From: Escherichia phage AV101
DNA length: 64,000 bases
Reading direction: 5' to 3' (one strand)
Sequence record: OQ973471.1
The notes beneath the pieces are model-generated. The model was not told the DNA's origin. It saw only the letters and a list, made by a program, of their open reading frames with translations, and searched no databases. Positions 10,281-54,408 of this stretch are shown here, piece after piece (positions within the stretch are counted from its first letter, which is position 1; every line of letters starts with the position of its first letter). The translations under genes and the position numbers were made by a program.

Positions 10281-10586
10281 GTGCAAGATCAGAATAAGTT
10301 CGGGGAAATCCCCGACGAGCGTTTCGGTGATAGCGACATGGATGGCGTGATTAACCATGTGAACAACTTCATTCGCCAGCAGGAGACTCCGACTCCTATC
10401 GGCGCAGCCAAGGCTCTTCATGATGTACTGGTGAAGATCGGCCAGCGCTCTGAAGCGGATGAAATCTTCTATAACTTCGACGACCAGTATAAAGTGAAGT
10501 TTGAAGAGAATGGCCGCCCACAGGTTGCTGTGTTCTGGGCACCTTGGCTGGGCGGCGTGAGCTGGCGTATTGAGGATGCTGTGTAA
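10281..10586 (+). CDS. Hypothetical protein
   Basis: GTG start with AGGAGG RBS; 101 aa. Confidence 0.45.
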   Translation: MQDQNKFGEIPDERFGDSDMDGVINHVNNFIRQQETPTPIGAAKALHDVLVKIGQRSEADEIFYNFDDQYKVKFEENGRPQVAVFWAPWLGGVSWRIEDAV

Positions 10587-11272
10587 TGCTGTCGCTCTAC
10601 CTGATCACGAATCTCGTCAATCATAAATTCTATATCGGTGTCACCTCAGAACCGGATAGGCGGTTGGCTGAGCATAAGTGTGGTCAGGGGAGCATTGCAT
10701 TACAACGAGCGTTCAAGAAATACGGTGAAGACCAGTTCAAGTTTGAAGTTCTGTTCCGAGGGAAAGATTCGGTTATCCTTCAGATAGAGTCTGAACTGGT
10801 CTGCCAGGAGATCCTTGACTCTGGGTGGTGCTACAACATGGTCGTCGGGGGTGGGAAGCCTCCATTGGCCACGCCTAATTCATCTGCAAAGAGTGCTGCA
10901 ACCCGCAAACGTTTGATCGCTGAAGGTAAGATTAAACCTCCACCAAGACTCACCCCTGAAGCACAAGCCAGAAAGGGTAAGATCATAAGCAAATTGATGT
11001 CAGAAGGGAAGATCCCCAAACCACCAAGACCTTCCTCTGAATCTCAAACGCGTGGAGGGGAAACTAGGAAGAGGCTGCATGCTCTTGGCCTGATAGACAT
11101 TGGTCCTGGCCGCGATGAAACGATTTACAAATGGCAGCACAAAGATGGTCGCATTGTTGAGTTAAGAAGATGCGATATGGAACTTCAATATGGCCTCCCT
11201 TCCGGTAATATAACGAATCTCTTGAAAGGTAGGGCTAAAACATGTCTCGGTTGGAGAATATTAAATGGCTAA
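10586..11272 (+). CDS. GIY-YIG homing endonuclease (Seg-like)
   Basis: N-terminal LYLITNLVNHKFYIGVT...RRLAEHK GIY-YIG core; C-terminal tandem basic repeats KIKPPPRLTPEAQ / KIPKPPRPSSESQ; TAATG overlap with the upstream gene. Confidence 0.65.
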   Translation: MLSLYLITNLVNHKFYIGVTSEPDRRLAEHKCGQGSIALQRAFKKYGEDQFKFEVLFRGKDSVILQIESELVCQEILDSGWCYNMVVGGGKPPLATPNSSAKSAATRKRLIAEGKIKPPPRLTPEAQARKGKIISKLMSEGKIPKPPRPSSESQTRGGETRKRLHALGLIDIGPGRDETIYKWQHKDGRIVELRRCDMELQYGLPSGNITNLLKGRAKTCLGWRILNG

Positions 11273-12182
11273 AATAATTGTAGTGAAAGGCACCTCGGCC
11301 ACGGGCAAGGGTACGAGAGTGGTTCAGTTCATCGAATGGCTCCGTACGAAGCTGGAGCCTACCGAACTGACCTACACAGTTGGTGACAAGACTCGCCCGT
11401 TTGGCTTGAAGTTCGGAGAGCTGAAGTTAATCTTCGTTGGACAGTACACCGTGTCTAACAAATCCGGCCTGGCTTCCTGGACTTCAATGGATGCAATCCA
11501 TGCTGCTACAGGCTCAGGCGATATTGCTCGTGATCTAATCAAGTGCTGGTTGGTTCAGGGATACACTCTGGTGTGCGAGGGTGAACCCCTCATGCTGTCG
11601 GACAAATGGCGTCCTGAATGGATGTTCAAGAACTATCCGATTGAATCATTGGCGCTGCTGTACTTTGCGTACCCCGACCGCTATCAGTACGATGCTCGTA
11701 TCCGTGGTCGCTCTGGTAAAGAAGCAGGGAACTCCGGCTGGTCGCGCAACGAATCTTACTCCAAGGAGTTTGAGAAGTCGAAGGCCGAAATGCTGGCGCT
11801 GGGCTTCACTGTGGCTGTTGATGATTACAGCGGACAGGATATCCTGTATAAATCACCGAATGTCAACACCCAGGAGTTCCTGACCAGCCAGCAGTCAGAG
11901 TTGGCGGTACTACCGTTCGACGCCCCGCTTTGGGTGGTGGGTAACGCGATTTGTCATCAGATACGGTCCGAACTGCGTGAAGTTAACATGGACACCAAAG
12001 ACTTCTACGCCTACTGTGAAACCAATCCGATGACCCGTGAGGTCGGCGGTGAGGATCCTTTGGCGCACAGAGTCCCTGAGAAGCCGCAGAAGGCATCCAA
12101 AACTAAAACCAAGGCGAGCGCCCAGCCAGAAGCAACGAAGGCAGCGTCGCGCTCTCTCCTTGACCTGATGAAGAAGGGGTGA
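11265..12182 (+). CDS. P-loop nucleotide/nucleoside kinase-like protein
   Basis: N-terminal IIVVKGTSATGKGT is an NMP-kinase-type P-loop (GxxxxGKGT); 305 aa; overlaps neighbours at both ends. Confidence 0.45.
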   Translation: MAKIIVVKGTSATGKGTRVVQFIEWLRTKLEPTELTYTVGDKTRPFGLKFGELKLIFVGQYTVSNKSGLASWTSMDAIHAATGSGDIARDLIKCWLVQGYTLVCEGEPLMLSDKWRPEWMFKNYPIESLALLYFAYPDRYQYDARIRGRSGKEAGNSGWSRNESYSKEFEKSKAEMLALGFTVAVDDYSGQDILYKSPNVNTQEFLTSQQSELAVLPFDAPLWVVGNAICHQIRSELREVNMDTKDFYAYCETNPMTREVGGEDPLAHRVPEKPQKASKTKTKASAQPEATKAASRSLLDLMKKG

Positions 12183-12382: not shown

Positions 12383-12756
12383 AAATTCAAATCCCTCGCG
12401 ATGCTGTAGCTATTGCGATTGACTACACCGGAAACGCCAAGCACATTACTGCCGTGCGCCTGATTCCTGAAAAGAACTGCGTCATCCCTCAGTTCCAGCT
12501 GAATGCCAATCCGTCGTCCAAAGACTTCGGCAAGTGGTTACAGGCTGCTCCGTTCCGTACCCAGACGAATGCTCAGATGTTCATCTCGGGTAAGACCCAC
12601 ACTGCAGCCCGTCTGTGGTTCGTGACCGCTGACCGTCGCTTTGTCGATATGTGGGAACGTCCGATGGGGTTCGTGAAGCCGGAAGATATTCAGCTGGCTC
12701 CTGAGCCTGAAGCTGTGGCTCCTGAAGAGGAAGCGAAAGATGCATCATTTATCTAA
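12379..12756 (+). CDS. Hypothetical protein
   Basis: ATG at 12379 overlaps the upstream stop (ATGA); 125 aa. Confidence 0.4.
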   Translation: MKIQIPRDAVAIAIDYTGNAKHITAVRLIPEKNCVIPQFQLNANPSSKDFGKWLQAAPFRTQTNAQMFISGKTHTAARLWFVTADRRFVDMWERPMGFVKPEDIQLAPEPEAVAPEEEAKDASFI

Positions 12757-13975
12757 AATGCCGACGGGCTATACGCCTCCGACTGAATGGAAGTACCCGA
12801 TTGACCTATCTGTTGACTACCGTAAACCTGAGAATCGCATGTACCTGCTCAAGGCTTGGGTGGAGGCGCTGTCCTATACAGAAGAGCACAACCAACAGAT
12901 GCGTCTGATGGACTATGCGATTGAAGTCACTGAAGGCATCAGCCTCGAACAGAAAGTCGAGCGCAAGATCTGGATGGCATTCCTGTGGGGTTGTTGCTAT
13001 AACGCTGTCGGACCGTGGACGATCTACAGTGAGTTCCCTGTGCCGCCTCAGTCTAAGGAAGAGATGCAGCGCTTCTCAGACTGGTACAACCTGAACTTTG
13101 AACGCATGCGATTCGATACCGACTGTCGCTACCGCAAGTCCAAGATGATTCCGTGTGTTCAGTCCTATATTGACTGGCTGGCTGGTCGTACTCAATATGA
13201 CGCTTTCCGTGGGATGCTGGTGTGCATCGATAAGACAGAACAATTCACCCAGCTGTGGGACACGGCGATGTCCTGGAAATACTTCGGTCGCCTGAGCGCC
13301 TGGAACTTCCTGGAAGCCCTGAACATGGTCTTCGGGAACGAATACACCATTGACGTCCCTGGCTTCATGCTGCGTGATCGTGATGGAAGCGAGTCCAACC
13401 GTAATGGCGCGGCGTTCTTGTCTAACCGTGACGATTGGGTGACTAAACACGGGAAGAAAAAGATCAACGGTTGCCCTATCACGGATGAAGAGTGTGACAT
13501 CCTTGAGGCCGACCTTGAGCAGGCGTTCCAGGATTGTGTGGCTGAGTTCGGGCACCTGACGTTCATCAACCGCCTGAACTTTGAAACCTCCGGTGCTTGT
13601 TGGCTGAAGAAATTCTTCCGACTGAAGAATACCCGTTACATCGGGTGGGACGCAGAGCGTACATGGGATGAGATCGACTACATGGAACGCGTCTGGCCTG
13701 AATACTCCTGCGCAGCGCTCTGGGAAGCCCGTTCGCTCTGGCTGCCAGATACCCTGTTGTGCGAAAAGGCTCCTGCAGGGCACGTTCCAGGCGTCCAGAA
13801 GTGGAAGATGCCTGTGTTCTTTGAGACTGGTGTTCCTCTGCATATCTGGCACCTGCAAAAGGGTACGCGCTGGGAACCATCCGAGGTATGTACGAACCTG
13901 AAGATGCCTGTGCGCAAGGTTGAGGACAAGTCGAAGTCCAGCAGCGTCAACCTCATGGCACTCTTGAAACGCTGA
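12740..13975 (+). CDS. Hypothetical protein; candidate base-modification enzyme by context only
   Basis: 411-aa ORF translationally coupled downstream of the P-loop kinase gene; no motif recognised by eye. Confidence 0.4.
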   Translation: MHHLSKMPTGYTPPTEWKYPIDLSVDYRKPENRMYLLKAWVEALSYTEEHNQQMRLMDYAIEVTEGISLEQKVERKIWMAFLWGCCYNAVGPWTIYSEFPVPPQSKEEMQRFSDWYNLNFERMRFDTDCRYRKSKMIPCVQSYIDWLAGRTQYDAFRGMLVCIDKTEQFTQLWDTAMSWKYFGRLSAWNFLEALNMVFGNEYTIDVPGFMLRDRDGSESNRNGAAFLSNRDDWVTKHGKKKINGCPITDEECDILEADLEQAFQDCVAEFGHLTFINRLNFETSGACWLKKFFRLKNTRYIGWDAERTWDEIDYMERVWPEYSCAALWEARSLWLPDTLLCEKAPAGHVPGVQKWKMPVFFETGVPLHIWHLQKGTRWEPSEVCTNLKMPVRKVEDKSKSSSVNLMALLKR

Positions 13976-24871: not shown

Positions 24872-24895
24872 AAGAGGCTCCGGCCTCTTTTTCAT
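24872..24895 (+). terminator. Rho-independent terminator
   Basis: AAGAGGC-TCCG-GCCTCTT followed by TTTTT; shares the GAGGCTCCGGCCTC core with the hairpin at 22763-22785. Confidence 0.6.
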
Positions 24896-24959
24896 TTCCG
24901 GTATTCGGTGTATAATGGACTCGTTCCCCATGAGCGGAACCTAACTGAGGATACACCAA

Positions 24960-25460
24960 ATGAAATCCATGGTCAAACGTAAAGTCGAAATCTCCCTGAC
25001 TGCCCATATTGAAATGGTCCAACAACTTATCCTGGATGCGTATGAAATCCAGAAAGATCGCCAATCGAGGGGAGGTGTGACGGACCCCACCTGTCCTGGA
25101 AACATACTGTACTATCGCATGCTGCGCCAGACTGGGCACACCGCCGCGCTGAAGAAGATTCTGTCCTATGATTTCCAGACAGAGAACAACCTCAACATCA
25201 TGGGTGTCTTCCATAGCGTTAGTGAACGCGATTCTTTCTTCCGCTCCCGAGCAGGTGCGGATGTATCATTGCCCGATGTAGACAAGAAACAGCACACGAC
25301 AACCATATCCCATTACATGGGCACGGACATCGATAAAGCAAACATCATCGTGTTCTCTGATACGTTGCATGACCCCAAGCGCCTTGCATCTGCGCATGAA
25401 ATGCTGCGGGAAGGTCGCAGCGCCCTCACTAATTTGACTTTAGTAGTGTTTCTGGGCTAG
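24960..25460 (+). CDS. Hypothetical protein
   Basis: 166-aa ORF; TGTATAAT -10-like sequence upstream near 24910. Confidence 0.45.
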   Translation: MKSMVKRKVEISLTAHIEMVQQLILDAYEIQKDRQSRGGVTDPTCPGNILYYRMLRQTGHTAALKKILSYDFQTENNLNIMGVFHSVSERDSFFRSRAGADVSLPDVDKKQHTTTISHYMGTDIDKANIIVFSDTLHDPKRLASAHEMLREGRSALTNLTLVVFLG

Positions 25461-25509
25461 ATAGTTACAGGGGAGTTTCCTCCCCTATTTCCCTAACAGG
25501 AGGTGCGCA

Positions 25510-25707
25510 ATGTACAAGTTCAGAATTAACAGAGAACGTAATTCGTTCAAATTCGGTGTAATCGCTGGGGTGTGTTTGTTCCTGGCGCTCGAAAGCGTTA
25601 TCGGCCTGCTTACAACACCACAAATGCAGGTGACTCGTTACCTTCTTGCCATTATATTTTCTGTTGTCGGTTTACTCTGCTCCTATTTGGGGTGTGTGAA
25701 GAAATAA
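25510..25707 (+). CDS. Small membrane protein
   Basis: 65 aa, two hydrophobic helices; AGGAGG RBS. Confidence 0.4.
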   Translation: MYKFRINRERNSFKFGVIAGVCLFLALESVIGLLTTPQMQVTRYLLAIIFSVVGLLCSYLGCVKK

Positions 25708-25749
25708 ACTGGCTGCACACAGCAATACTTTGATTTGAGAAACTACATC

Positions 25750-26238
25750 ATGATGTTGTTAATGAGCGTTCCACAGAACAAGATGACCCCTGCAACAGAG
25801 GGTAAGAATCACTTCAACATCTACAGCCGGAGCCAGACGGAACTCGGGCGCTTCCTCTCGCATTTTACCCATCATCCAATGACTACCCATGAACATGGTG
25901 TGTTTAACTCCATGGAGGGGTACTGGTATTGGCTGAAGTATAGGGATGACAACCTGCGCCTGCTCGACGGTTATGAGGCCAAGCAATATGGACAGGGATT
26001 GGCGGCTTCCCGCGTCATTGTCCTGGACCCGTCTACCGAAGAATTCAAGCGCGATATCCTATTTGCAACTAGTATGAAACTCCAGACAATGCCTGAACGT
26101 CTGAAGATCAGATTGGCGTACAGTCGCCTACCCCTGATCCATGCATATGTTCAGAACGGGAAATACAGTTTTCAAAACTCTATGGACTATATCATTGCCC
26201 ACATTAATCGTCTCCGCATACAAGGAACTTTGAAATGA
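25750..26238 (+). CDS. NADAR (YbiA-like, DUF1768) domain protein (putative)
   Basis: FNIYSRSQTELGRFLSHF resembles the NADAR F-Y-S...F-S-N-F core; a later W/Y-rich segment roughly matches the second conserved block. From memory of E. coli YbiA. Confidence 0.45.
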   Translation: MMLLMSVPQNKMTPATEGKNHFNIYSRSQTELGRFLSHFTHHPMTTHEHGVFNSMEGYWYWLKYRDDNLRLLDGYEAKQYGQGLAASRVIVLDPSTEEFKRDILFATSMKLQTMPERLKIRLAYSRLPLIHAYVQNGKYSFQNSMDYIIAHINRLRIQGTLK

Positions 26239-26816
26239 AATTTCTACACACTATCGTCGACACTTCTTATGACTGCACTGCTCATACCCCAGACCGTTCG
26301 CCTGTGTTTGTTCTGAACAAACTAGGTGAAGAGATCTGTGAACTGTCTGATGTGTTTCATGGCATAGTATCTTCCGAGCCGTTGAATGGCGAAGTTGCTG
26401 ATGTCATTATCTCTGCTATTGACCTTCTGTACGTCATGGATTATGACGACGTCCAAATGCGCGGCTCTCTGAACAAGGCCGAAATGATCGACTCTGTCAT
26501 CAACCACATGGCGACAGTGAACGATATTTCTTCTAATCTGTTGGAAGAAGACTGGTTCCGTCTGATTGATCGTGATCCTCAAAAGCATCTGAATCTTATT
26601 CATCATTATCATGGCCGGATTATCCGATTGTGCAACCAGCCTTATCGCAGTCAAGACAGATTGGATCAACTCGTCAATGACCTAATCAAGCATGTTGCGC
26701 GCATGGGGTGTGGGGAAGGGGCGATCCGTGGATCCTCTTTGACGGCCACTCGCATTAAAGTGGAGCACGCTATTGAACACAAGGTTGAAAAGTGGCGTAG
26801 CAAATTTGGTCTATAA
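26235..26816 (+). CDS. MazG-like nucleoside triphosphate pyrophosphohydrolase
   Basis: KLGEEICELSD...EVADVIISAIDLLY is the MazG E-x-x-E / E-x-x-D metal-binding motif pair. Confidence 0.55.
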   Translation: MKFLHTIVDTSYDCTAHTPDRSPVFVLNKLGEEICELSDVFHGIVSSEPLNGEVADVIISAIDLLYVMDYDDVQMRGSLNKAEMIDSVINHMATVNDISSNLLEEDWFRLIDRDPQKHLNLIHHYHGRIIRLCNQPYRSQDRLDQLVNDLIKHVARMGCGEGAIRGSSLTATRIKVEHAIEHKVEKWRSKFGL

Positions 26817-26865
26817 GCCGACCCCATACATAATCTTGTGTGTTTACCATTGACGGGATAGGCCG

Positions 26866-28776
26866 ATGTCCAACAAAATTGATATTGAACGCAAGTACAA
26901 GAAGCTCACTCACGTTGAGCATATCCTACTCCGCCCAGAGCGTCATCTGGGCAGTATTCGTTCGTCTGTGGGGACGGTGTGGGTGTATGACCCAACTAAG
27001 GACAAAGTTATCTTCCGTGACAACTTTGAGTACTCCCCCGCGCTGATCAAACAGTTTGATGAAATCATCACCAACTGTGTTGACCACAGCAAGACCCCTG
27101 AGGGCAAATCCCTGACGGAAATCACCGTCACAGTTTCCCCGATGAACGGTCAAATCATCGTTGCTGACAACGGGGGTATCCCTGTGGTCAAACATGGCGT
27201 CACCAACGAGTGGCTTCCTGAAATGTTGTTCGGCTCTCTATATGCGGGATCGAACTTCAACGACGAAGACGAAGAGTACAACAACCAGAAGTCCGGTGGT
27301 CAGAATGGCGAAGGGGCGTCCCTCGTCAACGTGTTCTCCAAATGGTTCCGCGTCACGACTAATGACGGCAAGAAGTCTTATACTCAGACGTTTGAAGACA
27401 ACATGAGCAAGAAATCTAACCCAGTCATCAGCAACGTGAACAGTCCTGGCACATCCATCGCCTGGATCCCCGACTATGCTCGCCTGGGCGTCAAAGGACT
27501 TGACCAGAACAACCTGCTGATGATCTATCGCCGCGCGTTTGAAGTGGCTGCGTGTAACCCGCGCCTGAAGATTGTTCTCAACGGGAAGCAAATCCGGATT
27601 GACCGCTTTGGTCACTTCGTTGATTACTTCCATGCTGGCTCGGCTGTTGACGAAACCGGGGATTGGTCTGTTGCTGTAGCCCCTTCATCCGGTATGTTCA
27701 TGCACGCATCATACGTGAACTCAATTGCCACCCACATCGGTGGTCCTCACGTTGATTATGTTGCCGACCAGATCGTGGCTGCGATTCGTCCTCAGCTGGT
27801 GAAGAAGTTCAAGACCGAGCTGAAACCTGCCATGATCAAGAACCACATGTCCTTGTTCATCGCTGCCGACATCAACAACCCGCGCTTTGACAGCCAGACC
27901 AAGGAGCGCATGACGACTCCTGTGAGCCAGTTTGGTACGTCCTACAAGCCCAGTGACAAGCTGATCCGCAAGGCGCTTGAGTTCGTTATGGCTGGCCTGA
28001 GCAAAGAACTGGCTTCCCTGCGCAATGAGCAGGATGATGCTGAGTTTGAAAAGGCCAAGAAGGATATCAGCAGGCGCGATTATCGTGAGATTGAGAAGTA
28101 TTACCCGGCGACAGCCCGTGGTGACCGCAGCAGTTGTTCCCTGTTGCTGACAGAGGGTGATAGCGCCTCCAACCCTATCCTGAACGCCCGTGACACCAAA
28201 AAGATCGGTTTGTTCCCGCTTCGTGGTAAGTTCATCAACTGTTTGAACGCCCCGCGCTCAAAGGTGATGGCAAACGAAGAGTTCAAGAATCTGTGTACCA
28301 TCCACGGTGGTGCAGTACCAGGCCAGCCCCTTGACATCAGCCGTTACCCACAGACTGTTGTGGCTACCGATGCGGACGACGACGGCATTCACATCCGTGG
28401 GTTGTTGATCACCCTGTATTGTACGTTCTGGCCAGAGTACGTCCGTCAGGGCAGGCTGAAGCTGCTGCGTACTCCTTATATGCGCGTGTGGTGTGGTAAG
28501 GTGATGCATGAGTTCATGAACAACACCGAGTATGAGGAGTTCCTGAAGACCCCCGATGCCAAGAAGATCACGAAGAAGAAATATCTGAAAGGTCTGGGTG
28601 GCAACAGCACTGAAGACTTCAAGCGTATTCTAAACAACCTGGATGCGTATACTACGACGGTCACGCTGGACGATGGCTATCAACAGTCACTGAAGAATGG
28701 CTTCGGTGATGAGGCCGCCGATTACCGCAAAACCTGGTTTAGCGATGTTTGTCTATTTGAAACCGAGGATGAATGA
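26866..28776 (+). CDS. DNA topoisomerase II large subunit (GyrB-like ATPase plus TOPRIM; T4 gp39 and gp60 regions in one ORF)
   Basis: GHKL ATPase N-terminus (EIITNCVDH...ADNGGIP), TOPRIM-like ATDADDDGIH; 636 aa. Confidence 0.85.
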   Translation: MSNKIDIERKYKKLTHVEHILLRPERHLGSIRSSVGTVWVYDPTKDKVIFRDNFEYSPALIKQFDEIITNCVDHSKTPEGKSLTEITVTVSPMNGQIIVADNGGIPVVKHGVTNEWLPEMLFGSLYAGSNFNDEDEEYNNQKSGGQNGEGASLVNVFSKWFRVTTNDGKKSYTQTFEDNMSKKSNPVISNVNSPGTSIAWIPDYARLGVKGLDQNNLLMIYRRAFEVAACNPRLKIVLNGKQIRIDRFGHFVDYFHAGSAVDETGDWSVAVAPSSGMFMHASYVNSIATHIGGPHVDYVADQIVAAIRPQLVKKFKTELKPAMIKNHMSLFIAADINNPRFDSQTKERMTTPVSQFGTSYKPSDKLIRKALEFVMAGLSKELASLRNEQDDAEFEKAKKDISRRDYREIEKYYPATARGDRSSCSLLLTEGDSASNPILNARDTKKIGLFPLRGKFINCLNAPRSKVMANEEFKNLCTIHGGAVPGQPLDISRYPQTVVATDADDDGIHIRGLLITLYCTFWPEYVRQGRLKLLRTPYMRVWCGKVMHEFMNNTEYEEFLKTPDAKKITKKKYLKGLGGNSTEDFKRILNNLDAYTTTVTLDDGYQQSLKNGFGDEAADYRKTWFSDVCLFETEDE

Positions 28777-31659: not shown

Positions 31660-31902
31660 ATGAACCCAGAATTTGAAAATCTGTTCGAGCGATGCTTCGA
31701 ACCAGGTTCTGTGTCCGGTTACATGGACCGTCTTTGCACTGCCATTGTAATACGCCTTGCTGCCAAGGGTATCGTTGTCAACACCATTATCCGCAATGGG
31801 AACAACTTTATCATGCAGATGACTGATTATCACCGCCGCACAGGCATCATCCAGGTGTCATGTGTTGACAATAGCATTATTGAATGGAGACAGTACGCAT
31901 GA
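31660..31902 (+). CDS. Hypothetical protein
   Basis: 80-aa ORF. Confidence 0.4.
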   Translation: MNPEFENLFERCFEPGSVSGYMDRLCTAIVIRLAAKGIVVNTIIRNGNNFIMQMTDYHRRTGIIQVSCVDNSIIEWRQYA

Positions 31903-32498
31903 CCACATATGTAATCAATGGTGGCGATCTACTGAAAGCCGCCTGTAGCTTCAATCTGATCGACATCTTTGCCCACGGTGCCAACTGTTGGTCTACCATG
32001 GGCGCGGGTATTGCCCTGCACATCGGCAACAACTTCCCAGCGCTGCGCGAAGTCGATGCGAACGACCCTCGTGGTCCAGAGCAACGCCTGGGTGGCATGT
32101 CCTATGCATTTGACCACAGCACTGGTGTCTGGGGTGCGAACCTCTACACTCAGTTTTATCCAGGTCCGAACGCTCGCATGCCGTCTGTCATCAGTTCTGT
32201 TCAGACCCTGTTTGAGCAGGTGCATGAAATTGTGGAAGCAACTAAAGACGAAACTGTCTATGTCGGCCTGCCTGCTATCGGCTGTGGCATTGGTGGCCTG
32301 AACCTCTACAGTGTAGTGCGCCATATCAATCGAATCTCTGAAAGCGTGTATGAAGAGACCCGCCGTCGTGTCGTCCCAGTCTTCTATATCAGGGAAGGAG
32401 ACGGGTTCGATGATGATCTGATGGAACTTTCTCATCTGGACACAGAAAGTATCATGATTGTCGAAGATGAGCAAGAAATCATCGACGAGGAGGGGTGA
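31899..32498 (+). CDS. Macro-domain protein (ADP-ribose binding/hydrolase)
   Basis: VINGGDLLKA...FNLIDIFAHGANCWSTMGAGIALHI and LPAIGCGIGGL match the macro-domain N-x6-GGGV and G-x-G-x-G motifs; GGAGA RBS; ATG at 31899. Confidence 0.65.
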   Translation: MTTYVINGGDLLKAACSFNLIDIFAHGANCWSTMGAGIALHIGNNFPALREVDANDPRGPEQRLGGMSYAFDHSTGVWGANLYTQFYPGPNARMPSVISSVQTLFEQVHEIVEATKDETVYVGLPAIGCGIGGLNLYSVVRHINRISESVYEETRRRVVPVFYIREGDGFDDDLMELSHLDTESIMIVEDEQEIIDEEG

Positions 32499-52706: not shown

Positions 52707-53749
52707 ACTACACCTTCCAGGAACTTAGGATCAACGATCTTGCGGTCAACCGGAGAATGGGTGAGCGCGGTGTTCAATCCATGATCCTGAATCAGGTCCA
52801 GGTTAATGAGCTTGTTATTCAATTTGCAGTGCAGGCAGTATGCCATCTGCACAATCAGACCGCGATCCGCATCATACTCCTTCAGGAAGGCAACAACAGT
52901 TTCCCAAGGACTACCGAAGTCACAATGAACAAGCACGCCAGTGAACAGATCGCGGATATGGTTCTGGTTGGTCACGTTCGTGAAGTGGATCATGGAGTTG
53001 ATGAACCCAGCTTCTACTTTGGTGTCCTTCGTGATCTTGCCCAGCTGCTTCTGGCTGACTTCATTGTTGTAGTAATGAAGATTGTTGGAGAAGAGCTTGT
53101 ACTGGCCGACGTCAACATCCAACACCCGAGCAATCACTTCCTGAAGAATAGAGAACTCAATGAAGTTGATTGAACTCATACCCCACAGAACATCCTGTGA
53201 GCGATTGATAACCGTCAGGTTCAGGCGACCTTCAACGATGGCGAACAACAGAGCCAGGTTACACACCATGTCCTTGGTCTTTGCTTCGCCACTCTCACTG
53301 AACTTCGCCAGACCAGCATCTGAATCCAGAGCCGGATCATAGATGGTGAGGTACGCCTGGCGAGTGTTTGGATTCTTGCGCAGGCGGTTGATGACGCTAT
53401 CCAGCTGGCCATGGGCGTACAGACGCGGACCATAAGCGGCTCGCCATGTGTGGCCGTTGTCGGAAAAGTTGGCGGCGCGGGGCAACACGCGGGACAGGAA
53501 GCGAACGTCATCGCGCCCGGACAGAACCCAGAAGGTCTCGCCGATGGCGGCGATAGCCGATGAGTTACGACCTTCAACGGATAGCCAGCGGTCACGGATG
53601 TCGGCGACGGTTATGGTCACGCCATCAAGGAAGCGGGTGCTATCAGTATTGATTTCAGCATTACCAGGATCAGATTCGATCCCGAATTCACGGATAGCCA
53701 AGACAGCCTGTTTCAGCATGTCATTGTTGTTTATTGCTTTGATTTCCAT
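52703..53749 (-). CDS. Thymidylate-synthase-family enzyme, candidate dUMP hydroxymethylase
   Basis: TS-family blocks RQAYLTIYDP and MVCNLALLF...NRSQDVLWGMSSINF (catalytic Cys; Q-R-S-x-D; Asn near the TS uracil-specificity position). Confidence 0.6.
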   Translation of the reverse strand: MEIKAINNNDMLKQAVLAIREFGIESDPGNAEINTDSTRFLDGVTITVADIRDRWLSVEGRNSSAIAAIGETFWVLSGRDDVRFLSRVLPRAANFSDNGHTWRAAYGPRLYAHGQLDSVINRLRKNPNTRQAYLTIYDPALDSDAGLAKFSESGEAKTKDMVCNLALLFAIVEGRLNLTVINRSQDVLWGMSSINFIEFSILQEVIARVLDVDVGQYKLFSNNLHYYNNEVSQKQLGKITKDTKVEAGFINSMIHFTNVTNQNHIRDLFTGVLVHCDFGSPWETVVAFLKEYDADRGLIVQMAYCLHCKLNNKLINLDLIQDHGLNTALTHSPVDRKIVDPKFLEGVV

Positions 53750-54408
53750 CAGATACTCCCAAAATCACGACAGAGGAATGCCATCACAGCCTGGTCTACT
53801 GTTAGGCCGTGAGACTTCATCATACCCGCAGCCACCGTAGGGAACAAGTCTTTATGTCGTTGACGATGGTCATGAACTCTCTCCCACTTCTCGACCACCA
53901 GACTTTCATTGAAATCCACACCGCCGTTGCGTGATTTAACGCGGGTGATACACGTTTCAAGAGGAGTGTCCATAAAGAGCACAACCAATTCACGTGGTGG
54001 GCGTGTCAGGCGGGGGATCCAAGAACTCAATAATGTGGATGGAATGATACCTTCGAAAATCACATCATATTTCAAGTATTCTGGTTGGTCAGCAATAGAC
54101 AACGCGAACAACATCTGCTCAGTGTCCTTCAGGGAATCAACCCCCTTGGACTTCGACTTGTCATATTTACCGATACAGACCACGTTGAACGAAGGACAGA
54201 CAGTCAGCATGACCTTGCCGTTATGGGTCACGACATACGCCTGAGGATCCCTCTCCGCCAGCTGAGACGGCACAGTGGATTTACCGCTACCATTGGAGCC
54301 TTTGACGTAGTAGATTTGCCCTCGTGCTGGGTAGATCCCCTTTACGACGGGTGGTTTAAAGAATGTGTGGACGGGGCGCTTCATCAGCCCCTTCAGGGAG
54401 TAGGACAT
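53749..54408 (-). CDS. P-loop kinase (polynucleotide-kinase-like), candidate DNA hydroxymethyl-dU kinase
   Basis: Walker A GSNGSGKST; 219 aa; start overlaps the stop of the TS-family gene. Confidence 0.45.
   Translation of the reverse strand: MSYSLKGLMKRPVHTFFKPPVVKGIYPARGQIYYVKGSNGSGKSTVPSQLAERDPQAYVVTHNGKVMLTVCPSFNVVCIGKYDKSKSKGVDSLKDTEQMLFALSIADQPEYLKYDVIFEGIIPSTLLSSWIPRLTRPPRELVVLFMDTPLETCITRVKSRNGGVDFNESLVVEKWERVHDHRQRHKDLFPTVAAGMMKSHGLTVDQAVMAFLCRDFGSI

Follow-up and report, generated by a model that had tools for sequence, protein, structure and literature searches.

Is a small gene of Escherichia phage AV101, carried as a "hypothetical protein" in almost all related phage records, a NADAR gene, and if so, what would its product act on? 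The gene occupies positions 25750-26238 of a 64,000-nucleotide stretch of the phage sequence (record OQ973471.1), which we refer to as the window, and it encodes 162 amino acids. An earlier sequence-only reading had claimed at this place an open reading frame (ORF) with the motif FNIYSRSQTELGRFLSHF and a NADAR (YbiA-like) domain. Profile-profile comparison, the predicted fold, and the conserved residues support the placement of the protein in the NADAR superfamily, as a core-only member of a distinct clade for which the His-type "phage NADARs" (gp30.3/AdfN) would be the sister group. The earlier claim of a NADAR (YbiA-like) domain is thus supported; among the known families, gp30.3/AdfN is a nearer relative of the protein than YbiA itself.

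Profile and fold evidence for a NADAR-like protein

The source phage is Agtrevirus-like (Ackermannviridae, subfamily Aglimvirinae): across window positions 25000-27000, Enterobacter phage fGh-Ecl02 and Escherichia phages YX22 and LHE287 share 99% identity with it, and Agtrevirus EspM4VN shares 87%. Both the ORF and its motif proved real on translation, and the same 489-nucleotide coding sequence has been called by GenBank annotators in the 99%-identical phages (e.g., LHE287). Tblastn matches to the gene occur in 575 phage records (29-100% identity), and when 1.84 billion cluster representatives were searched with a profile, 1838 relatives scored E<=1e-3 (~1800 clusters at 50% identity). The gene is therefore clearly real and not a chance ORF. 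An ORF on the opposite strand (25759-25986, 75 aa) was taken as a shadow of this conserved + strand gene.

We aligned 26 relatives (39-91% identity to the query) and compared the resulting profile by hhalign with family alignments of gp30.3/AdfN and of YbiA. The match to gp30.3/AdfN (probability 96.0%, E 3.9e-9) extended over 139 columns, which is the whole domain, and that to YbiA (84.1%, E 7.5e-6) over 95 columns, which is the N-terminal two thirds. When the profile was built from 187 sequences, the values were 97.5% (E 4.9e-12, 137 columns) for gp30.3 and 95.2% (E 2.8e-8, 97 columns) for YbiA; the two known families matched each other at 97.6% (E 2.9e-12, 127 columns), and reversed-alignment controls gave 0.1-4.3%. 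The family alignment of gp30.3 was required, because the single T4 sequence gave only 57%. The hhalign score was 60-75 to gp30.3/AdfN versus 41-53 to YbiA.

An AlphaFold2 model made from the 26-relative alignment had a mean predicted local distance difference test (pLDDT) score of 93.7 and a predicted template modeling (pTM) score of 0.87. It begins at the N-terminus with a short strand region, followed by the helical core, a C-terminal β-hairpin (132-135/138-141), and a last helix, and it displays the α-helical core with two small flanking β-sheets of the YbiA-like NADAR superfamily fold. The NADAR core takes up approximately residues 18-158, with no N-terminal extension. In a structure comparison, E. 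coli YbiA (2b3w) was the best single fold match (score 10.1), followed by the P. nicotianae NADAR with ADP-ribose (8bau, 9.0) and the G. lovleyi DarT1-associated NADAR (8bat, 8.8); the next best, an unrelated structure, scored 3.7. The same three structures ranked at the top with Foldseek. Against a viral structure library, the top matches were the protein's own uncharacterized family, followed by many giant-virus and phage proteins named as NADARs. Individual genome annotators have seen the NADAR link before, without its spreading: HHpred at 98% to 2B3W was recorded for the homolog of Serratia phage Moabite, and a Kuttervirus ortholog (Salmonella phage FrontPhageNews) is labeled "putative N-glycosidase".

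Direct scans with family models gave a different result. The sequence-only reading had proposed a search against PF08719 as its check, with the lack of a hit to count against it. Hmmscan at E<=10 found no match of the protein to PF08719, PF08010, or any other Pfam model; the NCBIfam scan also found none, and no PF08719 match was obtained at E<=10 for any of 26 family members. In a control, T4 gp30.3/AdfN, a NADAR ADP-ribosylglycohydrolase validated by experiment (PMC11257639, PMC11125620), matched PF08010 only and not PF08719, which recognized YbiA with E 1.5e-38. Because the validated T4 enzyme misses PF08719 too, this model is too strict a standard, and failure to match it is uninformative. 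PF08010, with a gathering score of 36 bits that the phage AV101 protein does not reach, matched two family members weakly (E 0.013) and scored 27 bits, again below the cutoff, on the NADAR-like domain of a long fusion relative (P0123, described below). PDB sequences gave only noise (E 0.19-1.1), whether the query was the protein or its profile.

Predicted active site and comparison with known NADARs

Conservation was counted across 187 diverse family members. Within FNIYSRSQTELGRFLSHF (residues 22-39), N23, Y25, S26, T30, G33, L36, and F39 are conserved at 96-100%. The first β-strand aligns by hhalign with "INFYS" of YbiA (I17/F19/Y20), and its residues H21 (180/187), N23 and Y25 (both 187/187), and S26 (186/187) are nearly or fully constant. 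FNIYSRSQTELGRFLSHF also contains the NADAR signature LS(N/H)F, here L36 S37 H38 F39, which aligns to "ALSNF" in gp30.3 and "FSNF" in YbiA; position 38 is N in 154 of the 187 members, whereas the Ackermannviridae clade has H. Two residues of the catalytic helix, E56 (the predicted catalytic Glu) and W59, are invariant. By hhalign, E56 and K63 (the Glu+7 Lys) align to E36/K43 of gp30.3 and to E48/K55 of YbiA; mutagenesis of the E. coli C7 NADAR identified three key positions, among them E88 and K95 (PMC11543638), with E43/K50 as the P. nicotianae equivalents. The motif A77-K78-x-x-G81 aligns to "AK..G" in gp30.3 and "AAR.GR" in YbiA. A77 (186/187), the near-invariant second lysine K78 (184/187), and G81 (182/187) are all retained, and K110 is present in every member.

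In the last-strand motif (P128 181/187, H131 186/187, Y133 185/187), His131 stands where YbiA has Glu and DarG1 has Asp. It lies at the beginning of strand 132-135 as defined by DSSP and aligns with H123, the sole invariant His of the gp30.3 family; His at this position is typical of phage NADARs (PMC11125620, PMC11543638). Because of this alignment, because "E-G-aromatic" is shared, and because the "D-x-Y-W-G-x-G" segment of YbiA is absent from both, we place the protein by its sequence among the His-type NADARs, with the phage NADAR family as its nearest. The sequence-only reading would have been undone by missing catalytic residues; E56 and H131 are in place, and K63 occurs in the phage AV101 protein and in a minority of the family. 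The clade also has a signature of its own, comprising D/E-G-x-x-H-x-N-x-Y-S at the N-terminus, E-G-Y-W-Y-W, and P-x-x-H-x-Y.

The closest parallel is T4 gp30.3/AdfN (PF08010), likewise a small core-only protein (152 versus 162 aa) of a lytic myovirus with modified DNA. The two share a full-length profile match (96-97.5%) and a set of motifs (LSNF, S-x-E-G-aromatic with the Glu+7 Lys, A-K-x-x-G, and the invariant last-strand His), and both have "E-G" at the catalytic Glu, where YbiA has "E-H" ("E-H-Y"). They differ in that identity is ~19% (hhalign) and PF08010 does not detect the phage AV101 protein, in that the NADAR-like clade has its own invariants (E-G-Y-W-Y-W, K110, P128-x-x-H-x-Y) and does not keep the Glu+7 Lys family-wide, and in that activity has been demonstrated for gp30.3/AdfN and is predicted for the clade. 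YbiA (PF08719; 2B3W) is further removed. Its last-strand Glu, E125, is replaced by a His one position along; its invariants E125, D130, Y132, W133, G136, and G137 have no counterpart, and the hhalign match ends before this segment. YbiA is encoded in a LexA-controlled chromosomal operon, in contrast to the phage setting of the NADAR-like gene. The isoelectric point, considered as a hint of DNA binding, was uninformative (9.55 versus 9.42 for YbiA).

DarG1 proteins (BC4488; E. coli C7; G. lovleyi, 8BAT) have Asp rather than His in the last strand and carry an N-terminal β-β-α DNA-binding extension that the NADAR-like protein lacks. They are encoded in DarT1-NADAR operons, whereas no DarT was found among the neighbor families listed for the 17 prokaryotic loci or on the five metagenomic contigs described below. 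The NADARs of the E. coli phages Bas32 (Markadamsvirinae) and Bas60 (Vequintavirinae), which we compared by description only, also stand alone, lie outside the T4 group, and were independently acquired (PMC11257639). Both have been shown to neutralize DarT1 (PMC11257639), and they are a precedent for phages having several NADAR lineages that are unrelated to one another. DELTA-BLAST against the conserved-domain NADAR model brought them to light, and they group with NADARs of archaea and bacteria, whereas the clade described here is missed by the Pfam NADAR model and groups with gp30.3.

Substrates and roles considered

We think it somewhat more probable than the contrary that the NADAR-like protein removes base-linked ADP-ribose as a counter-defense, and that together with Tk.4, a DarG-like macrodomain protein encoded 6 kb downstream, it gives the phage erasers for both DNA ADP-ribosylation defenses. 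By analogy with other NADARs, the ADP-ribose moiety would be bound in the helical cleft, with E56 holding the distal ribose, lysines (K63, K78) holding the diphosphate, and H131 replacing the Glu or Asp of other families. The enzyme would then act on DNA or RNA and hydrolyze the N-glycosidic bond that joins ribose C1'' to an exocyclic base amine (most likely N2 of guanine), which would free ADP-ribose and restore the base. In the infected cell, it would act as an orphan antitoxin-like counter-defense that strips the ADP-ribose put on replicating phage DNA by DarT1-type toxins, with Tk.4, a candidate eraser of thymidine-ADP-ribose, working beside it. The NADARs of T4 (AdfN), Bas32, and Bas60 remove guanine-linked ADP-ribose in DNA and defeat DarTG1, and all four NADAR families hydrolyze this adduct on DNA and RNA in vitro (PMC11257639, PMC11125620, PMC12945103).

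Several observations weigh against this proposal. In view of the missing Pfam and NCBIfam matches, NADAR membership rests on remote-homology and fold methods. The Glu+7 Lys, which is essential in the E. coli C7 NADAR, is present here (K63) but found in only 33/187 family members, the Ackermannviridae clade (a basic residue occurs at Glu+9 in 82/187), and the protein, like gp30.3, lacks the "D-x-Y-W-G-x-G" segment of YbiA. In one study, the T4 NADAR was active in vitro but failed to protect cells against DarT1 (PMC11125620), so NADARs can have a narrow specificity in vivo. In the view argued in PMC9503650, the main targets of phage NADARs are soluble ADP-ribose derivatives. A canonical NADAR and a NADAR-like domain occur in one chain in P0123, which argues for a non-identical substrate. 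Finally, the family was not found beside a DarT-like toxin, and no ADP-ribosyltransferase (ART) was among the 25 listed neighbor families (of 103) at 17 prokaryotic loci.

These loci are the only ones found among 185,579 prokaryotic species (one genome per species scanned), and the family is overwhelmingly viral; it occurs also in jumbo, Vibrio, and Pseudomonas phages. The 17 loci lie on Pseudomonas megaplasmids and contigs of metagenome-assembled genomes, their flanks hold phage-associated genes (5-hydroxymethyldeoxyuridine [5-hmdU] DNA kinase, ribonucleotide reductase, and PhoH), and their neighbors include DUF488-N3a (three) and Macro (two). On five metagenomic phage contigs, neither a constant partner nor an ART or DarT was near family members, and the neighbors included Thg1, PTH2, a weak CTP_transf_like match, and scattered nucleotide-metabolism genes. 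With no ART or DarT partner in these contigs or among the neighbor families listed for the 17 loci, a toxin-antitoxin pairing was dropped, and the gene reads as an orphan without a toxin-antitoxin partner.

Approximately 37% of 192 family sequences are multidomain. Among 30 multidomain relatives scanned, the NADAR-like domain was fused to SLOG (YpsA/YAcAr/DprA-like; 8/30), DUF4326 (7/30), Macro (6/30), DUF488-N3a (2/30), an Rv2179c-like exoribonuclease (2/30), and, in one relative each, a calcineurin-like phosphoesterase, DUF1848, and a canonical PF08719 NADAR. A Macro-NADAR-SLOG-DUF4326 architecture network has been described for viral ADP-ribose processing (PMC9503650, PMC7824862), and by their domain matches, the partners seen here belong to the same network. 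These fusions fit the main rival reading, that the protein is instead a NADAR-fold hydrolase of soluble ADP-ribose-derived molecules (cyclic ADP-ribose isomers, or signals and toxins derived from nicotinamide adenine dinucleotide [NAD] by host TIR, SIR2, or ART defenses) and not of nucleic-acid adducts. Repeated joining to Macro, SLOG, DUF4326, DUF488-N3a, and a calcineurin-like phosphoesterase has been read as a pathway for low-molecular-weight ADP-ribose derivatives (PMC9503650, PMC7824862). The same reading draws on the stand-alone position of the gene in phage early-type regions, on its lack of a DarG1-like DNA-binding extension, and on the RNA-repair or NAD-salvage type of the contig neighbors (Thg1, PTH2, and the weak CTP_transf_like match). 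We nevertheless regard it as unlikely, because all NADARs tested to date, including three extension-less phage enzymes, act on base-linked ADP-ribose in DNA or RNA and because we found no report of a soluble-signal substrate for any NADAR.

A more novel reading is that the clade is not simply one more eraser of guanine-linked ADP-ribose and has a substrate of its own. This could be a non-guanine base-linked ADP-ribose, an adduct on the hypermodified DNA of the phage, whatever its ART (see below) produces, or a soluble NAD-derived immune signal. This idea draws on the repeated fusions to SLOG, DUF4326, and DUF488-N3a and on the pattern of conservation: most members have lost the Glu+7 Lys, but two further lysines and the aromatic face E-G-Y-W-Y-W are invariant. 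It draws also on P0123, a 1415-aa metagenomic polyvalent protein with a PF08719 NADAR at 10-143, the NADAR-like domain at 547-699, and DUF4326 at 1185-1274, whose two NADAR-type domains suggest non-redundant specificities. We hold this reading only tentatively and give it a minor share of our expectation.

Neighboring genes and the ADP-ribose gene set

The gene is the third of a co-directional block in the order histone-like gene, small membrane protein gene, NADAR-like gene, MazG-like gene, and topoisomerase II (Table 1). A sigma-70-like promoter match upstream of the block, obtained from a consensus scan only, is weak evidence that a host polymerase transcribes it early or in the middle of infection. 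At ATGA (26235-26238), the MazG-like start codon overlaps the NADAR-like stop codon, and both overlap and order are kept in Kuttervirus (FrontPhageNews) and Agtrevirus records. The coupling may serve to cleave released ADP-ribose or nucleotides. The MazG-like gene bears the label "viral tegument-like protein" in some Agtrevirus and Kuttervirus records. In other relatives, homing or HNH endonucleases lie directly 3' of it, and many megablast matches end at query position 1810 for this reason. The GIY-YIG ORF elsewhere in the window is probably a homing endonuclease, and it has no counterpart at the same position in LHE287 or EspM4VN.

Table 1. Features of the window discussed in the text, in order of position
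Feature	Position	Strand	Details
PLP (pyridoxal phosphate)-dependent enzyme gene	2300-3493	+	sub-threshold match; thymidine hypermodification set
ART-PolyVal ADP-ribosyltransferase (predicted)	3534-3998	+	154 aa; PF18760 E 2.7e-10, 41.6 bits vs cutoff 31.2
GIY-YIG nuclease ORF	10586-11272	+	228 aa; E 5.5e-8; between nucleotidase-like and 5-hmdU DNA kinase genes
5-hmdU DNA kinase 2 (HMUD2)	11265-12182	+	E 4.8e-157
Amino-acid:DNA transferase (ADDT)	12740-13975	+	E 4.5e-60
Sigma-70-like promoter match	24889..24916	+	TTTTCA-16-TATAAT, 10/12
Histone-like protein gene	24960-25460	+	first of co-directional block
Membrane protein gene	25510-25707	+	65 aa; directly before NADAR-like gene
NADAR-like gene	25750..26238	+	162 aa; ATG 25750, stop 26236-26238; PHROG 652 ("unknown function")
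First β-strand motif	25810..25827	+	H21-F-N23-I-Y25-S26
Motif FNIYSRSQTELGRFLSHF	25813..25866	+	residues 22-39 (translation)
Catalytic-helix motif (predicted)	25909..25938	+	S54-M-E56-G-Y-W-Y-W-L-K63
Second-lysine motif	25978..25992	+	A77-K78-x-x-G81
Last-strand motif	26128..26148	+	L127-P128-L-I-H131-A-Y133
MazG-like pyrophosphatase gene	26235..26816	+	PHROG 1247, E 1.6e-35; no Pfam match
Tk.4	31884-32498	+	204 aa; DarG-like macrodomain
5-hmdU DNA kinase HMUD1	53749-54408	-	E 1.6e-108

This setting bears on a further reading, in which the protein is a YbiA-like N-glycosidase of nucleotide metabolism that cleaves the ribosyl-base bond of a small metabolite and is tied to the MazG-like, hypermodification, and dNTP-pool genes. 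YbiA, the best single fold match, is reported to act as an N-glycosidase on riboflavin intermediates (PMC11543638). The MazG-like overlap and gene order are kept in Ackermannviridae, dUTPase-family genes lie near family members in two unrelated contexts, and among the genes of the window are those for 5-hmdU DNA kinases, ADDT, and an NT5C-like nucleotidase, together with one that records of related phages name as dCMP deaminase. Homologs are also labeled "N-glycosidase" in two GenBank records, but these labels derive solely from an HHpred match to 2B3W. The protein lacks the last-strand Glu and the D-x-Y-W-G-x-G segment that define YbiA, its profile is closer to gp30.3/AdfN, and the MazG linkage was not seen beyond Ackermannviridae in the metagenomic contigs examined. 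We consider this reading improbable.

The sequence-only reading had also counted three ADP-ribose genes in this DNA (transferase, macro, and NADAR), and in essence it counted correctly: the ART-PolyVal protein scores above its Pfam cutoff, and Tk.4 is recognized by its match to the NCBIfam DarG model. ART-PolyVal, which also matches DUF3990 slightly under the cutoff, is kept in 225 Ackermannviridae records, under labels such as "unknown structural protein" (Dickeya phage LIMEstone1) and "ADP-ribose transferase" (Salmonella phage STP-4). Like T4 Alt, it may be an ART that is packaged in the virion.

The NADAR-like protein could then be the eraser for the phage's own ART, one that limits or undoes modification on the phage's molecules and leaves that on host targets in place, so that the two genes form a dispersed writer/eraser pair. 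The strength of the ART match, its retention in these records (some as a structural protein), and the co-occurrence of ART, NADAR-like gene, and DarG-like macrodomain in the genome are consistent with this idea. One ortholog record (Salmonella phage vB_CECAV_050, 1247-1735) reads "virion structural protein", an unverified label whose basis we could not trace and on which we did not rely. The NADAR-like family, however, is far wider than the ART (575 versus 225 phage records), extending to jumbo, Vibrio, and Pseudomonas phages that are almost absent from the ART matches, and LIMEstone1 labels the NADAR-like ortholog only as hypothetical. A role confined to the phage's own ART thus seems very improbable to us.

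Under the counter-defense proposal that we prefer, the NADAR-like protein would act together with Tk.4. The match of Tk.4 to Pfam Macro is sub-threshold (E 0.0086), and its alignment to the NCBIfam DarG antitoxin model (E 2.6e-8, far below the equivalog cutoff) covers the macrodomain part, positions 6-135. By these matches, Tk.4 is a candidate for an orphan, DarG-like enzyme that would erase thymidine-linked ADP-ribose (anti-DarT2). According to PMC11257639, T-even phages are resistant to DarTG2 through an unidentified route. T4 also has a gene named tk.4, according to a label in related records. Because the window contains genes for thymidine hypermodification (the two 5-hmdU DNA kinases, ADDT, and the putative PLP-dependent enzyme), the phage DNA is expected to carry hypermodified thymidines, and these could shape the substrate preference of the phage's ADP-ribose erasers.

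Implications for phage ADP-ribose biology

Phage NADARs and their anti-DarT1 role are already established. NADAR domains were reported in 27% of myoviruses with the sensitive profiles of one group (PMC9503650), and a few GenBank records call homologs of the present protein N-glycosidases. In the literature on NADARs and Ackermannviridae together, we found passing co-mentions only, none of which concerned NADAR enzymes. The novelty here is modest: a large viral clade that Pfam, NCBIfam, and PHROG annotation overlook can be assigned, on its alignments, to the His-type NADARs with explicit predicted catalytic residues, and Ackermannviridae appear to hold a set consisting of a NADAR, a DarG-like macrodomain, and an ART. 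Since the Pfam NADAR models miss this clade, surveys of phage ADP-ribose biology that depend on such models would undercount it.

Ackermannviridae (ViI-, CBA120-, and LIMEstone-like phages) are used widely in biocontrol and therapy, and the gene is nearly always a "hypothetical protein" in them. Assignment as an AdfN-like NADAR gives it a concrete, testable anti-defense function. It also suggests that these phages may carry erasers against both known DNA ADP-ribosylation defenses, with the NADAR-like protein directed against DarT1 (guanine) and Tk.4 against DarT2 (thymidine).

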